From the sequence record NC_028780.1: a stretch of 64,000 nt of DNA. One strand, written 5' to 3'. The DNA comes from Escherichia phage slur07. This document shows, piece after piece, positions 28,843-35,755 of the stretch (positions within the stretch are counted from its first letter, which is position 1; each line of letters begins with the position of its first letter). The notes beneath the pieces were generated by a model. The model saw only the letters and a program-made list of their open reading frames with translations, ran no database searches and was not told the DNA's origin. Both the position numbers and the translations under genes were made by a program.

Positions 28843-28915
28843 TGGGAATTAGCCAAGTTGGTAAGGCACTGGATTTTGATTCCAGGATGCAAAGGTTCGA
28901 GTCCTTTATTCCCAG
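28843..28915 (+). tRNA. tRNA-Gln (anticodon UUG)
   Basis: Cloverleaf by eye: acceptor TGGGAAT/ATTCCCA, anticodon stem CTGGA/TCCAG with loop TTTTGAT, T-arm AGGTTCGAGTCCT. Confidence 0.75.
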
Positions 28916-28916
28916 C

Positions 28917-29003
28917 GCGAGAATGGTCAAATTGGTAAAGGCACAGCACTTAAAATGCTGCGGAATGATTTCCTTGTGGGTTCGAGTCCCACTTCTCGCA
29001 CCA
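28917..29003 (+). tRNA. tRNA-Leu (anticodon UAA), CCA encoded
   Basis: Acceptor GCGAGAA/TTCTCGC, anticodon loop CTTAAAA, long variable arm, T-arm GGGTTCGAGTCCC, 3' ACCA. Confidence 0.75.
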
Positions 29004-29008
29004 AATTT

Positions 29009-29082
<74 letters not shown>

Positions 29083-29128
29083 ATTTATGACTCGTCGTGA
29101 GACGCTCAGTTCTTTATTAGGGACTGAT

Positions 29129-29737
29129 ATGCATTTTTATCTTTATAAAATAACAAATAAAATTAATAATAAAATTTATATTGGTGTGCATTCTACCGAA
29201 AATTTAGATGATGGATATATGGGTTCTGGTAAATTATTAAAAAGAGCCCAAGATAAATATTGTATAGAAAATTTTTCTAAAGAAATATTAGAGTATTTTG
29301 ACGATAAAGAATCTATGCTTGAAGCCGAGAAAAATATTGTCACAGAAGAGTTTTTAAATAGACCAGATGTGTATAATTTAAAACTTGGAGGTGAAGGTGG
29401 ATGGGATCATATAAATAATTATCCTATGACAGATCAGCAACGCGAATTAATTTCATTGGGTGTTAAAAAGGCACATTCTAACGGAAAATTAAAAGGATGG
29501 TCTTCAAATGGATTAATGAAGAATGGCTTTGCTGGTAAAACTCATTCTCAAGAAGCTAAACGTAAAATAGCAAAAGCAAACGAAGCAAAAGTTTCTGCGG
29601 ATGAAAGAAAAAGAAGAATAGAAATTTCTAAATTATATGATTTTTCTAAACGTGGCGAATTGTCTAAATATGCTAAGCATATTGGCGTAAGTCATACTCA
29701 AGCAAAAAGAATTCTAAATCAAATTAACAATATATAA
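29129..29737 (+). CDS. segB: GIY-YIG homing endonuclease, SegB-like
   Basis: 202 aa from ATG 29129 (MHFYLYKITNKINNKIYIGVHST...GYMGSGKLL); GIY-YIG motifs; sits inside the tRNA cluster as T4 segB does. Confidence 0.8.
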   Translation: MHFYLYKITNKINNKIYIGVHSTENLDDGYMGSGKLLKRAQDKYCIENFSKEILEYFDDKESMLEAEKNIVTEEFLNRPDVYNLKLGGEGGWDHINNYPMTDQQRELISLGVKKAHSNGKLKGWSSNGLMKNGFAGKTHSQEAKRKIAKANEAKVSADERKRRIEISKLYDFSKRGELSKYAKHIGVSHTQAKRILNQINNI

Positions 29738-29740
29738 ATA
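29733..29740 (+). promoter_or_regulatory. TATAAATA motif immediately upstream of tRNA-Ser
   Basis: Exact late-promoter octamer at the segB 3' end, 4 nt before tRNA-Ser; could be chance in AT-rich DNA. Confidence 0.3.
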
Positions 29741-29743
29741 TTT

Positions 29744-29833
29744 GGAGGCGTGGCAGAGTGGTTTAATGCACCGGTCTTGAAAACCGGCAGTCGCTCCGGC
29801 GACTCATAGGTTCAAATCCTATCGCCTCCGCCA
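29744..29833 (+). tRNA. tRNA-Ser (anticodon UGA)
   Basis: Acceptor GGAGGCG/CGCCTCC, anticodon loop CTTGAAA, long variable arm, T-arm AGGTTCAAATCCT, 3' GCCA. Confidence 0.75.
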
Positions 29834-29839
29834 GTTTTT

Positions 29840-29915
29840 GCTGATTTAGCTCAGTAGGTAGAGCACCTCACTTGTAATGAGGACGTCGGCGGTTCGATTC
29901 CGTCAATCAGCACCA
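29840..29915 (+). tRNA. tRNA-Thr (anticodon UGU)
   Basis: Acceptor GCTGATT/AATCAGC, anticodon loop CTTGTAA, T-arm GGTTCGATTCC, 3' ACCA. Confidence 0.75.
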
Positions 29916-29916
29916 A

Positions 29917-29991
29917 GGCCCTGTAGCTGGAAGGTTCAAGCAAGCGACTCATAATCGCCAGATGGTGGTTCAATTCCACCCAGGGCCACCA
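29917..29991 (+). tRNA. tRNA with CAU anticodon (Ile2-type as in T4, or Met)
   Basis: Acceptor GGCCCTG/CAGGGCC, anticodon loop CTCATAA, T-arm GGTGGTTCAATTCCACC, 3' ACCA; D-arm pairing imperfect. Confidence 0.65.
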
Positions 29992-30003
29992 AATTATGAA
30001 TTA

Positions 30004-30090
30004 GGGGAGTTATCCCGTAGAGGTAGCGGTGTGGACTGTAAATTCATTGTCATTGCGACTCGGGTGGTTCGACTCCACCACTCCCCACCA
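30004..30090 (+). tRNA. tRNA-Tyr (anticodon GUA), class II with long variable arm
   Basis: Perfect 7-bp acceptor GGGGAGT/ACTCCCC, anticodon loop CTGTAAA, variable arm TGTCATTGCGACTCG, T-arm GGTGGTTCGACTCCACC, 3' ACCA; D stem and anticodon stem contain GU or mismatches. Confidence 0.6.
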
Positions 30091-30094
30091 ATTT

Positions 30095-30169
30095 GGATGT
30101 GTAGCTCAATGGCAGAGCGATCGCCTGTTAAGCGATTGGTTATAGGTTCGAATCCTATCACGTCCGCCA
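30095..30169 (+). tRNA. tRNA-Asn (anticodon GUU)
   Basis: Acceptor GGATGTG/CACGTCC, D-arm GCTCAATGGCAGAGC, anticodon stem ATCGC/GCGAT with loop CTGTTAA, T-arm ATAGGTTCGAATCCTAT, 3' GCCA. Confidence 0.7.
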
Positions 30170-30173
30170 AATA

Positions 30174-30249
30174 CGAGGCATAGCTCAGAAGGAAGAGCAA
30201 GGACCTTCTAAGTCCTGGGTCGTAGGTTCGATCCCTACTGCCTCGACCA
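30174..30249 (+). tRNA. tRNA-Arg (anticodon UCU)
   Basis: Acceptor CGAGGCA/TGCCTCG, D-arm GCTCAGAAGGAAGAGC, anticodon stem AGGAC/GTCCT with loop CTTCTAA, T-arm GTAGGTTCGATCCCTAC, 3' ACCA. Confidence 0.75.
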
Positions 30250-30643: not shown

Positions 30644-31117
30644 ATGAAATCATATGCTCAATTTTTAAATGAAGCGGTGTTAAATGAAGCATCTAGCACC
30701 GAAATTCAAGCTGTCGCAAAAGCAGCCATTGCAGCGGGTAAATATTCCTATAAAGATGCTTCTGACGAATCACGATTCCAATTTGCTCGCGACATGAAAG
30801 CAGAAGGATTTACGGGAAATGCAGTTAGTATGGCCTGGAAAAGTTTAGTTGCTACTGGCGCTGCTTTTGCAAAGGCTTCGGGTAAACCTGCTCCTAAAGC
30901 AGATCCTAAAGTCACACAAGAGAAAAATATCGTTAAAGGAATTATCTCCAGATATGAAGCTATCCTTAAAGAGCTTTTAGTAATCAAAACTGAAGGTCAA
31001 AAGTTAGCTCGTGCTTATAGTTTCAAAGATAATCCACATGCTCATGACCTAGAGTATGTTGAAGACATCCAAAAAATTATTAAAGACCGCATTTGGTCTG
31101 CTAAACAAATCAAATAA
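30644..31117 (+). CDS. internal protein with capsid targeting sequence (CTS)
   Basis: 157 aa, MKSYAQFLNEAVLNEA... (CTS-like MK.Y..F..E); SD AGGAAA; late promoter TATAAATA 30596-30603 upstream; flanked by near-identical terminators. Confidence 0.7.
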   Translation: MKSYAQFLNEAVLNEASSTEIQAVAKAAIAAGKYSYKDASDESRFQFARDMKAEGFTGNAVSMAWKSLVATGAAFAKASGKPAPKADPKVTQEKNIVKGIISRYEAILKELLVIKTEGQKLARAYSFKDNPHAHDLEYVEDIQKIIKDRIWSAKQIK

Positions 31118-31271: not shown

Positions 31272-31328
31272 TTTTTCACAAAACTGTTTACATCCCTGTT
31301 CTTCCATGGTACTATACAACTATCAACT
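31272..31328 (+). repeat. promoter-module repeat, copy A (21 + 23 nt identical blocks)
   Basis: TTTTTCACAAAACTGTTTACA (31272-31292) and ATGGTACTATACAACTATCAACT (31306-31328) are identical to 46802-46822 and 46836-46858; only the 13-nt spacer differs. Confidence 0.75.
31286..31315 (+). promoter_or_regulatory. early promoter, GTTTAC / 18 bp / TACTAT
   Basis: GTTTAC 31286-31291, TACTAT 31310-31315; flanking sequence near-identical to the promoter at 46816. Confidence 0.65.
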
Positions 31329-31623: not shown

Positions 31624-31653
31624 GTTTACACAGGCTCATGATTGAGATATTAT
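31624..31653 (+). promoter_or_regulatory. early promoter, GTTTAC / 18 bp / TATTAT, overlapped by a 9-bp-arm palindrome
   Basis: GTTTAC 31624-31629, TATTAT 31648-31653; palindrome CAGGCTCAT(31631-31639)...ATGAGCCTG(31652-31660). Confidence 0.6.
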
Positions 31654-32014: not shown

Positions 32015-32039
32015 GTTTACAATCTATTAAAAACGTGAT
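32010..32039 (+). promoter_or_regulatory. early promoter, GTTTAC / 18 bp / TATTAT
   Basis: GTTTAC 32010-32015, TATTAT 32034-32039. Confidence 0.6.
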
Positions 32040-32071
32040 ATTATCTAATTGTATCAACCTAAGGAAATACT

Positions 32072-32665
32072 ATGAACACACTGAAGAAAATTGTTGAGTT
32101 TATTCGCACTAAACTTGGTTCTGCTATGGCTAAAAATTTATCTGTCGAAGAACAGTATACTGCTGCAGCAGCAAAACTACTTGATAAAATTAAAGATCTA
32201 AAAACTGCTTCTGTTAAATCTATTAATGAAGAAAAACGTATTCGTGAACTTATTGTCGAAAAGAATCGACAAGCCGAATCAAAAGAGCGTGAAATTCGTA
32301 AACTTCTTTCCGAAGGTCAAGATGTAACAATGCATGCTAAACTCGGTTTACTATATCGTCGAACGGCTGAGCAGTTGACTACTAAAGCTGACGGTTATGC
32401 TGAAATGCGAATTGAAATCGCCAAGAAAGTAGTTGAGTTAGATGATGCTCGTCAAGAACTTGCAGTTAAATTGGAATATATCCGTGAAACTCGTGCAGCA
32501 AATGCCCTTGGAATTAGTACTGCAGATGATGTAGTTGAAATTGCAGCGCTGACTAAGGTTGATATTGAAGATACCCTTGCTCGAGTTGAAACCTTTAACG
32601 GTAATATTTCCGGGGTTGAAACTACCTCTGCCGATGTTCAGGAATACATTAATTCTCTGAAATAA
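32072..32665 (+). CDS. coiled-coil protein, possibly PspA/IM30-like
   Basis: 197 aa, almost entirely heptad-rich helix; N-terminal amphipathic segment; C-terminal [15 protein letters not shown] resembles the PspA ARFESFERR region (recall only). Confidence 0.5.
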
Positions 32666-32670
32666 TGATA

Positions 32671-32686
32671 AGGGGCTTCGGCCCCT
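32671..32686 (+). terminator. UUCG-loop hairpin
   Basis: AGGGGC-TTCG-GCCCCT after the 32072-32665 gene; weak T-run. Confidence 0.45.
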
Positions 32687-32706: not shown

Positions 32707-33312
32707 ATGAAAATGCAAAGTGATTTCAATTCAATGTTTGAAGAGTTCCAAAGACAAGTTGATGTTCCAGACCAATTACTAAATGCTCTTAAACGCATGG
32801 CAGAAGGACGTAATTACTATTGGAGCTCTTCATATGAAACTGATGAAAGTCTTTCTGGATTTTATAAAGGTAAAAAGTCTTTAATACGTCCTGGAATACT
32901 CATTAAAAGTATTGAATCAATTCATTCATTGACATGTGATTTTGATGTTGAATTTACTGATTTCATTTCTCCTGAATGGACAGTTTGTTATTTAAATGAC
33001 GATTATGATTATCTTGGCGTTTATAGTTTAAGTGACGCATGGTTTAAACGTAATTTACAAAAGTCAAATTTGTTCTATATTGATACTACGGTAAAATTTC
33101 AGGGAAAGAAATATTTCTTTACTCTTATAGTTGATTCTGAAACAAAACATGAAAATAAACGTATTCTTAGTAAAAAGAATATCTTGACTATTGTTGATGA
33201 TCTTTTTGATAAATTCGTGGAAAATCCCAATTTTGAAAGCGATTTATTATTAGAAAAATTTGTTAAGGAATGTAGAGAATATGTTAAAGCCATCACTATA
33301 CCTTCCAAGTAA
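32707..33312 (+). CDS. hypothetical protein
   Basis: 201 aa ORF with SD GGAG upstream. Confidence 0.55.
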   Translation: MKMQSDFNSMFEEFQRQVDVPDQLLNALKRMAEGRNYYWSSSYETDESLSGFYKGKKSLIRPGILIKSIESIHSLTCDFDVEFTDFISPEWTVCYLNDDYDYLGVYSLSDAWFKRNLQKSNLFYIDTTVKFQGKKYFFTLIVDSETKHENKRILSKKNILTIVDDLFDKFVENPNFESDLLLEKFVKECREYVKAITIPSK

Positions 33313-33673
33313 ACCTGTGAAGTATGAATTAAAGCGCCAGCTAATTCCTACTGATGTATTAATAGGTCCTGTGACAGCTATATCATTTGTAATTCTATTG
33401 ATTGTTGGAATGGTTATAGACTTTATGACTGATATTGAATCTGGCGTAATATTTTTGTTAGTATTAATTCTTCCATTAGTAGTTCCATTTTTATTGGTAC
33501 CTGTAAATTGGGTAGGATATTGGTATCAAGGAAGGCATTATCGTAAACGTGTACGTGAATGGAAAGCTCAGTGTAAAAAGATCAAAAAGGAACACCAGCT
33601 TAAACTAAATATGTATGAATTTAATGAAATTATGAAATTTGTTAAGGAATCACGATGCAAAAGCCAAAACTAA
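33281..33673 (+). CDS. small membrane protein (paralog 1 of 3)
   Basis: 130 aa from ATG 33281; two hydrophobic helices; C-terminal FVKESRCKS-type motif shared with the next two genes. Confidence 0.5.
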   Translation: MLKPSLYLPSKPVKYELKRQLIPTDVLIGPVTAISFVILLIVGMVIDFMTDIESGVIFLLVLILPLVVPFLLVPVNWVGYWYQGRHYRKRVREWKAQCKKIKKEHQLKLNMYEFNEIMKFVKESRCKSQN

Positions 33674-34029
33674 ATAAAGTCAAATATTCTTTTTCTGAGT
33701 CATTTTTAATTTTTGCTGTGGCGTTGGCTGCAGCTCTTGCTGGTAGTCTTATTGGATTAACGATTGACTGTATTATTTTAAACATCCGCAGTAACGTCAG
33801 CGGTATAGTAGATATAATAGAAGTTTGGAGTGAACTTCATTATACTATAGCAATTTCATTATTTTCATTCTTTGGTATTATTTTATATTTTCATTATGAT
33901 AATTTTAAAATAAATTGGCAAAGAAAAAAGGATTACAAAATACAATTAAAAGAATATAATAACTACATATCTTATATTGAAAATGAATCAATGAAAGAGT
34001 TTGTGAGTGATTGCAGGAAAATCAAATGA
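33655..34029 (+). CDS. small membrane protein (paralog 2 of 3)
   Basis: 124 aa; two TM helices; C-terminus EFVSDCRKIK; SD AAGGA. Confidence 0.55.
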   Translation: MQKPKLNKVKYSFSESFLIFAVALAAALAGSLIGLTIDCIILNIRSNVSGIVDIIEVWSELHYTIAISLFSFFGIILYFHYDNFKINWQRKKDYKIQLKEYNNYISYIENESMKEFVSDCRKIK

Positions 34030-34510
34030 TTTTAAAAACTCGCTGGTATGATTTAGATGATGGGGACGATGGCATTTCAGTCGATAGAGTTGACTGGAGC
34101 GGCTGTTCTGAAGATACAAAGAAACGATTAATTAGGGAGTTTAGAATGGGATATCAAGCAGTTAAGCCATCTACTGTAACAGATGATAAATTCGTGTGTA
34201 TTCAAAATGGTCGTGCTAAGTTAACGAACGCTGATTGGTTCACAGATAAGAAGGTTATTCTGTGGTATATTATTAGTTTTCCTGTGACATCATTTGTATT
34301 TTGCTTCTTTGGAGAAAGTCCAGTAGGCAGAACGGAAGATTGGATTCTTTTAATTATACTTGTTAATATTTTTACAGCAGCAGTACTATCAGGAATATGG
34401 TGCGTGTTCATTGAAATGCCATGGCGTTTACGCAGACAGCAAAAGATTTATGATGAAAAGAAATATGCTCAAAATTTAAATAGCTTTATCACTGAATGCA
34501 GGAAATTAAA

Positions 34511-34514
<4 letters not shown>
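34026..34514 (+). CDS. membrane protein (paralog 3 of 3)
   Basis: 162 aa from ATG 34026 (ATGA overlap); two TM helices; C-terminus SFITECRKLK. Confidence 0.55.

Positions 34515-35755
<1,241 letters not shown>

Follow-up and report, generated by a model that had tools for sequence, protein, structure and literature searches.

Introduction

The closest described relatives of the protein reported here are PspA of Escherichia coli (PF04012; 4WHE), together with the PspA rods of Synechocystis (7ABK), and Vipp1/IM30 of cyanobacteria and plastids (7O3W, 6ZVR, 8QBR), a protein of about 260 amino acids (aa) with a C-terminal extension, H7. Their fold is that of the ESCRT-III superfamily, which is also found in archaeal and eukaryotic ESCRT-III proteins (CdvB2, Snf7/CHMP). 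Induction of PspA in the bacterial host is transcriptional and depends on sigma-54 and PspF, and the hairpin region of E. coli PspA carries the PspF binding (the 4WHE fragment consists of residues 1-144). In this study we analysed a 64,000-nucleotide stretch of the genome of Escherichia phage slur07 (NC_028780.1), referred to below as the window, and in it an open reading frame (ORF) on the + strand at 32072-32665. The ORF is phage T4 early gene e.6, and its product very probably belongs, as a divergent representative, to the PspA/IM30 family and hence to the ESCRT-III superfamily.

The homology of e.6 to PspA is already known, in the form of one sentence that has been in print since 2021. For gp163 of Klebsiella phage Metamorpho, a homologue of T4 e.6 from the same family, HHpred was reported to give 99.9% to E. 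coli PspA 4WHE_A, in a report that offers no controls, family analysis, structure or functional proposal (PMC7862958). This assignment is missing from the T4/RefSeq and GenBank annotation and from the 2025 re-annotation of T4. Although T4 serves as the reference among lytic phages, RefSeq and the genome-wide functional re-annotation of 2025 both leave e.6 'hypothetical'. Other virus-encoded PspA/IM30 proteins have been recorded. The 'PspA/IM30 family protein' of Acinetobacter phage vB_AbaM_ME3 is a conventional-looking PspA of 229 aa that standard annotation recognises and that is only a distant structural match to e.6 (Foldseek expect value (E) 0.05), and in the Jug jumbo phages a pspA-like gene stands beside terD (PMC12880540), a linkage that the e.6 family does not have. 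The e.6 family is a lineage separate from the PspA-like genes of ME3 and Jug, and more diverged than these. In the literature on T4 e.6, phage-encoded PspA or ESCRT-III nothing functional was found, and no discussion of phage-borne copies was found in the reviews and surveys of PspA and ESCRT-III that were consulted; an eLife paper of 2025 on pspA* is about capsule loss and is not informative on e.6. To the sentence of 2021 we add controlled statistics, a transitive bridge through Pfam, an end-to-end alignment that includes the alpha5-like helix and a structural ranking against the PDB, as well as the extent of the family over two phage families, its widespread mis-annotation and a mechanistic hypothesis based on host shut-off.

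Homology of e.6 to PspA and Vipp1

An earlier note on this DNA, made from the letters alone, had described a 197-aa product and quoted its N- and C-terminal peptides, and both the ORF and the peptides are borne out by the sequence. The coding sequence (32072-32665, + strand, 197 aa plus stop) specifies a protein identical to T4 e.6 (P39224) at 196 of 197 residues; several deposited phages encode exactly this protein (100% identity). Its slot is named e.6 in LR746311 and corresponds to 69312-69905 (locus T4p129) in T4. The window is a segment of a Tequatrovirus (T4-like) genome, and the order on its + strand is tRNAs, segB, tRNAs, e.8, e.7, e.6, e.5, e.4, e.3, e.2, nudE, lysozyme e and denV.

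With a profile (A1) made solely of e.6 relatives of at least 47% identity, we searched 1.84 billion representative proteins. The search recovered a compact family of about 195-205 aa with 46 representatives, and retrieved the proteins P0065 to P0068 over their full length at E 1.8e-21 to 2e-19. Two of these, P0066 (39.0 bits, E 8.9e-10) and P0065 (35.1 bits, E 1.4e-8), lie above the gathering score of PF04012 (33.9 bits), with the next-best Pfam family below 15 bits for both. P0067 and P0068 match PF04012 at E of about 1e-4 and P0061 at E 0.13, and the alignments of all five begin at profile positions 2-3. P0066 is encoded on a phage contig, where its neighbours are UvsX and a DnaB-type helicase, and it carries the label PF04012 in the precomputed annotation of the collection. 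Its clade is that of the Ackermannviridae, exemplified by gp042 of Kuttervirus FEC14, which by BLASTP matches the window protein at E 4e-12 over 194 aa and RB43 e.6 at E 5e-24. Membership of PF04012 is thus reached transitively, through clear e.6 homologues that exceed the curated threshold; the exhaustive HMMER profile search stayed in the phage family of about 200 aa and gave no direct bridge to cellular PspA.

A 40-sequence alignment of the e.6 family (A2) was compared by hhalign with a profile of 46 PspA and Vipp1 sequences, including Enterobacterales PspA translated from their loci. The E. coli PspA used was 100% identical to NCBI PspA and the Vipp1 sequence came from a PDB alignment; a scan of genome contigs for PspA diversity returned only Enterobacterales PspA at 78-99% identity and added little. 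In local mode the two profiles aligned with 94.3% probability (P 1.1e-7) over 167 columns, starting at residue 1 of both, and in global mode 1-197 aligned with 1-215 (94.5%, P 1.6e-8). Reversal of either profile, a control which preserves composition and heptad periodicity, gave short fragments at 0.2-0.6% probability. Leaving out the five bridging sequences gave 88.6%, and the twelve most diverged non-bridging members taken alone gave 84.5%. The family reached 89.8% against a single Vipp1 sequence and 63.8% against a shallow enterobacterial PspA profile. In these alignments ARVETF(N) of e.6 falls on MARFESF(E) of PspA, a likeness to MARFESFERR that the earlier note had pointed out, and the conserved C-terminus DVxEYLxSLK is matched with V(E/S)(D/E)(E/Q)LAxLK, the motif in which PspA and Vipp1 end. 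We observed, therefore, a collinear homology of whole domains that goes beyond a coiled-coil background.

The predicted structure points in the same direction. AlphaFold2 models were obtained with A1 (predicted local distance difference test score (pLDDT) 74.5) and with A2 (pLDDT 84.1, predicted template modelling score 0.68), and they contain the same elements. When Foldseek was run against 350,542 PDB chains, a check that the earlier note had proposed, ranks 1-8 were all Vipp1 for the first model and ranks 1-11 were all Vipp1 for the better one (E 5e-4 to 4e-2, probability 0.97-1.00). Filaments of the archaeal ESCRT-III protein CdvB2 came next (E 0.05-0.1), with Synechocystis and E. coli PspA lower down. 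The hairpin-only chain 6zvs_A superposed on the e.6 model with a template modelling (TM) score of 0.68. Vipp1 thus provides the best structural as well as the best profile matches of e.6.

An alternative reading is that the likeness to PspA reflects composition and heptad convergence in a generic coiled coil, with a true role that is unrelated, such as that of a scaffold or adaptor. This reading draws on the Pfam search with the single window protein, which returned only weak matches scattered over coiled-coil families (USP8_interact, Seryl_tRNA_N and others), and on GenBank records in which neighbouring or related genes are labelled 'scaffolding' or 'host specificity'. It is contradicted by the collapse of the reversed-profile controls to short fragments, by a true alignment that starts from residue 1 in either family and extends to both C-termini, by two family members above the curated Pfam threshold, by the exclusive occupation of the first 11 Foldseek places by Vipp1 and by the independent HHpred result for Metamorpho gp163. 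We regard the generic coiled coil as essentially excluded, the controls having largely refuted it.

Several results weigh against the assignment to PspA/IM30. In hmmscan against Pfam, PF04012 was absent for the window protein at E up to 10, which leaves that protein on its own below the gathering threshold, and PF04012 was not among the families listed for 34 close relatives. A phmmer search of the PDB with the window protein gave no sequence match, and in a profile search of the PDB Vipp1 was listed, collinear over 4-142 versus 4-144, with a score that was not significant. The NCBIfam PspA equivalogs NF007974/TIGR02977, on which E. coli PspA as positive control scores 437 bits, matched none of the window protein, P0065, P0066, FEC14 gp042 and RB43 e.6. 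The LiaH equivalog was matched by P0066 only, weakly and collinearly (E 0.005, 16.5 bits versus a cut-off of 380). With close relatives alone (A1 or a 23-sequence core) the hhalign probability was 12-14%, although the alignment was still collinear and scored about 28 versus about 16 for the reversed control. Finally, the best Foldseek E is modest (5e-4), with a global TM score of about 0.45 and a large root-mean-square deviation outside the hairpin; the low TM score is attributable to the 'open' form of the structures in the polymer state.

We conclude that e.6 is neither a PspA nor a LiaH equivalog, nor part of a Psp operon. The PspA/IM30 (ESCRT-III-like) character that the earlier note had raised as a weak similarity is supported by four independent lines of evidence, namely transitive sequence searches, profile-profile comparison, structure and the published HHpred result. 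The same note had held that a profile search without a PspA match would speak against this character, and the plain search of the single protein, taken by itself, does so; that search was too insensitive for the homology of e.6. The assignment to PspA/Vipp1/ESCRT-III gives a concrete, testable function to a widely conserved gene of two phage families.

Predicted architecture and comparison with known proteins

In the AlphaFold2 model, helices assigned by DSSP cover residues 2-22, 25-80, 86-145, 151-160, 166-170/174 and 186-196. The product is nearly all helical, in agreement with the earlier note, and the layout of the ESCRT-III fold (alpha0, hairpin, short alpha4, alpha5) is found in the model, so that e.6 is predicted to have an ESCRT-III-type architecture. 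In the core alignment of the e.6 family, 22 positions are invariant. All coordinates below refer to the + strand.

The first helix, alpha0 (residues 2-22; 32075-32137), is a cationic amphipathic helix and a predicted membrane anchor, which aligns to alpha0 of PspA/Vipp1 from residue 1. The amphipathic N-terminal segment of the earlier note is recovered here, with a computed hydrophobic moment of 0.45 and a net charge of +3 over residues 2-19 (the moment is 0.49 in PspA and 0.61 in Vipp1). Its hydrophobic face is formed by L4/I7/V8/I11/L15/A18/M19. The two arms of the hairpin follow, about 57 residues in length. Alpha1 (residues 25-80; 32144-32311; pLDDT 89-98) is the first arm of the ESCRT-III-type hairpin and is aligned to residues 25-80 of PspA; the tip EGQDV (residues 81-85; 32312-32326) is aligned with the tips KERED and NGEEN of PspA/Vipp1; and alpha2/3 (residues 86-145; 32327-32506; pLDDT 85-95) forms the second arm. 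The most conserved block of the family, residues 86-97, opens alpha2 just past the tip and aligns with LAR(A/E)AL..K of PspA/Vipp1, with K90, L91, L94 and R96 invariant. Short alpha4-like helices (residues 151-174; 32522-32593) include the ARVETF segment that falls on MARFESF of PspA; T174 and F175 are invariant. The C-terminal alpha5-like helix (residues 186-196; 32627-32659) is aligned to the alpha5 end motif of PspA/Vipp1, and Y192, S195, L196 and K197 are nearly invariant.

The comparison with PspA shows likenesses in organisation and differences in detail. Like PspA, e.6 is collinear from residue 1, starts with an amphipathic alpha0, has its hairpin tip at about residues 80-85, carries an FExF-type motif in alpha4, ends in a ...L..LK helix and has no transmembrane segment, as expected of a cytoplasmic protein. 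Unlike PspA, it is 25 residues shorter, about 21 of these being deleted in the global alignment between alpha4 and the last helix, and its identity is 13-15%. The charge of alpha0 is +3 compared with -1 in PspA, and where PspA/Vipp1 have an AEDP linker the phage protein has N-x-[ST]-x-E-[DE]. In comparison with Vipp1, e.6 lacks the C-terminal extension and part of the alpha4-alpha5 region, and has no thylakoid context. With its 197 aa it offers structural and mechanistic studies a minimal ESCRT-III-like protein that is shortened by nature.

The likeness to the ESCRT-III proteins CdvB2 and Snf7 is at the level of the fold only, and unlike these proteins e.6 has no known Vps4/MIT partner in its host. 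A Snf7-family match was not among the listed Pfam results (the full list for the window protein, and the top 25 families by members for the alignments). The C-terminal helix was also considered as an ESCRT-III motif of the type that interacts with microtubule-interacting and transport (MIT) domains, its hydrophobic spacing being like that of MIM1; this was rejected, as no MIT/Vps4 partner is known in the host and the helix aligns to LAxLK of PspA/Vipp1.

Proposed role of e.6

T4 shuts off host transcription. Since PspA needs new transcription for its induction, and T4 abolishes this, a cell under infection would be unable to raise a Psp response by itself. This raises the idea that lytic phages keep the host inner membrane and the proton-motive force intact with an effector of their own after silencing the host stress response. 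We propose that the phage would make its own PspA-like effector soon after infection, from an early promoter; that e.6 would attach by its alpha0 to the inner membrane on the cytoplasmic side and polymerise through its hairpin and C-terminal helix in the manner of PspA/Vipp1; and that the polymer would seal or stabilise the stressed membrane, limit proton leak and preserve the proton-motive force. The insults met by an infected membrane include genome injection, superinfection, hours of holin build-up during lysis inhibition and depolarising abortive-infection effectors, and if the proton-motive force collapsed too early, the holin would be set off ahead of time and the burst aborted. In such a scheme e.6 would act as an accessory, condition-dependent safeguard.

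We consider it about an even question whether e.6 is a phage-supplied guardian of the inner membrane and the proton-motive force. Taken as a whole, the explanation that joins a compact PspA/IM30/Vipp1 member to this guardian mechanism is the best one available to us, and we lean slightly towards it. A wider proposal, that T4-like and Vi1-like (Ackermannviridae) phages carry an ESCRT-III-superfamily repair polymer which replaces the silenced host Psp response and keeps the inner membrane energised against the insults listed above, is more speculative, and we put it forward tentatively. If true, bacteria would be host to an ESCRT-III machine of viral origin, which might also act as a broad counter-defence against depolarising immune systems.

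The published data on T4 e.6 bear on this proposal from two sides. Its mRNA has been classed as early, and the protein was detected with 'middle' kinetics (PMC9697503, supplements 4 and 6). In a CRISPRi-ART screen, knock-down of e.6 was scored 'Not Fit' with a value of 0.30, which means no fitness cost under standard conditions (PMC11879866, supplement 15), and the gene was annotated there as 'unknown function, phrog_1203' with prior essentiality 'UNKNOWN' (supplements 8 and 15). This lack of a knock-down phenotype tells against a guardian role, and a usefulness confined to certain conditions would fit it. It also counts against the role that no PspB/C/F-like partner and no conserved membrane-protein neighbour was found across the e.6 lineages, and that the host-shutoff rationale is our deduction from established knowledge.

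Early expression without a laboratory phenotype would also suit a protein directed at host defence. Such genes, early, accessory and widespread in phages, are typical of counter-defence, and in one system of antiphage signalling based on cyclic oligonucleotides (CBASS) the cyclase was found to be conjugated exclusively to host PspA and released upon infection (PMC11153139). On this basis e.6 might decoy the Cap2-mediated conjugation of the cyclase to PspA, or shield the cell by neutralising pore-forming or depolarising effectors. The link between CBASS and PspA, however, comes from a Bacillus system and not from Enterobacterales, e.6 resembles none of the known families of anti-defence proteins (PHROG 1203 is of 'unknown function'), and if the protection consisted of membrane stabilisation the idea would overlap with the guardian role. 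We consider a decoy or shield unlikely.

A further explanation turns on regulation. As a PspA homologue that retains the alpha1-alpha2/3 hairpin, the very region with which E. coli PspA binds PspF, and as the product of an early and non-essential gene, e.6 could be a mimic or antagonist that binds PspF to keep the psp regulon off, or that poisons or redirects host PspA polymers. However, e.6 and E. coli PspA share only about 13-15% identity in aligned columns, which makes a conserved PspF/PspA interface doubtful. Repression of a sigma-54 regulon would presumably be redundant where T4 already abolishes host transcription, and strongly diverged members of the family occur in phages of Aeromonas and other hosts. 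A regulatory mimic therefore seems to us quite unlikely, and we retain the membrane-guardian mechanism as the preferred reading.

Distribution, neighbourhood and annotation

Among 50,697 phage records, 1,105 have a member of the e.6 family, and they come from the Straboviridae and the Ackermannviridae. The Straboviridae with a member (Tequatrovirus and many others) infect Escherichia, Klebsiella, Shigella, Aeromonas, Enterobacter, Yersinia, Citrobacter, Salmonella and Serratia, and the family is also present in RB43 and in the jumbo phages Aeromonas 65.2 and SonariX. In the Ackermannviridae it occurs in Kuttervirus and Miltonvirus, with matches in BFVD from phiEa2809 and UPM 2146.

Homologues of e.6 are 'hypothetical' almost everywhere and are wrongly called 'host specificity protein' in hundreds of GenBank records, while the BFVD entry from Klebsiella phage UPM 2146 names its homologue 'tail completion protein'. 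The T6 record AP018814 labels the neighbour e.7 'capsid scaffolding protein' and gives e.5 as a 'site-specific RNA endonuclease'. The labels 'host specificity', 'tail completion', 'scaffolding' and 'RNA endonuclease' appear to be unsupported annotation transfers.

The flanks of e.6 are the phage genes e.7 and e.5, which belong to no Pfam family. Unlike cellular PspA, e.6 is phage-borne, has a sigma-70 early promoter rather than sigma-54/PspF control and has no pspBCDE or pspF neighbours, so that the pspF-pspABCDE context was not found at this locus. Two candidate modules were examined and rejected. The first was an e.7-e.6-e.5 module in common with the Ackermannviridae, whose flanking proteins show no similarity and belong to no Pfam family. 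The second was a general membrane-protein partner encoded downstream; such a gene is present in Kuttervirus, where the gene directly after the e.6 relative encodes a single-pass membrane protein, and further downstream in T4, and there is none in RB43, Aeromonas 65.2 and SonariX. As the flanks are non-homologous and the membrane neighbour is missing in these three phages, no conserved module can be claimed.

In the Ackermannviridae the gene directly after the PspA-like gene (L086 5647-6225, which is gp041 of Kuttervirus FEC14, and L083 7391-7951) has a product of about 190 aa that carries a single transmembrane segment at its N-terminus and is not homologous to T4 e.5. By analogy with LiaI and LiaH, the FEC14 gp041-type protein could be a lineage-specific membrane anchor.

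A role in lysis timing had been suggested in the earlier note, and e.6 does lie in a block upstream of lysozyme e, next to the small two-transmembrane proteins e.4, e.3 and e.2. In that role e.6 would remodel or scaffold the inner membrane specifically for lysis inhibition by holin T and antiholin RI, or for the spanins, and so set the timing of lysis instead of giving general protection. A match in PHROGs to an Rz-like spanin might be cited in its favour; at E 0.22 it is not significant and was dismissed, and e.6 itself falls in PHROG family 1203 ('unknown function'). The gene is early, unlike the late genes t and e, and its neighbourhood is not kept in RB43, Aeromonas 65.2, SonariX or the Ackermannviridae. 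A component of the lysis clock is in our view very unlikely.

The genes e.4 (33260-33673), e.3 (33655-34029) and e.2 (34011-34514) are consecutive, every one of them runs into the start of the gene that follows, and their two-transmembrane products are about 23% identical to one another. The cytoplasmic tails at the ends of the three products are alike, F(V/I)x(D/E)CRK(I/L)K, and e.5 ends with a related FVKECRE (near 33270-33312). We note that e.4, e.3 and e.2 look like tandem paralogues with a common C-terminal motif.

Promoter and downstream hairpin

An early promoter of its own and a hairpin terminator had both been claimed for this gene. The promoter is confirmed as a T4 early-type sigma-70 promoter at 32016-32044 on the + strand, with (G)TTTACA, a 17-nt spacer and a TG-extended TATTAT. 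It scores 10/12 in a consensus scan, plus the TG, and the arrangement GTTTACA-17 nt-TGnTATTAT is conserved in T4, T6 and vB_SsoM_113. A Shine-Dalgarno sequence, AAGGA (32061-32065, + strand), can be read 6 nt before the ATG and is invariant across the four phages aligned.

The claim of a terminator is only half right. A GC hairpin with a UUCG tetraloop (GGGGC-UUCG-GCCCC) is present between e.6 and e.5 at 32671-32686 on the + strand, and it too is invariant across the four phages (z = -2.5). On its 3' side, however, the coding strand reads UAUUACUUGG and not a U-tract, so the hairpin is not a canonical intrinsic terminator and that name fits it only in part. Its role may be to stabilise RNA or to attenuate transcription.

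The genes e.8, e.7 and e.6 are each provided with a separate early-promoter-like site of the form (G)TTTACA-17-TAnTAT, at 31287-31315, 31625-31653 and 32016-32044 respectively. These sites make up a dense array of single-gene early transcription units.

Other observations in the window

Two further ORFs, at 30644-31117 (157 aa) and 35474-35755 (93 aa), have a common N-terminus, MK(S/T)Y(A/S)(Q/E)FL(N/S)E(A/S)(V/I)LNEA (BLASTP E 4e-7), which we take to resemble the capsid-targeting sequence of the T4 internal proteins IPI/II/III. One of the two occupies the ipIII/ipII slot between e and denV, and the other lies between the tRNA cluster and e.8. Both probably encode internal (injected) proteins of the variable kind.

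Nine tRNA genes lie at 28843-30249 (Gln, Leu and Gly, then Ser, Thr, Met, Tyr, Asn and Arg), the two groups being split by the GIY-YIG homing endonuclease gene segB (29087-29737). Compared with the eight tRNAs of T4, this set contains Met, Tyr and Asn and lacks Pro and Ile.

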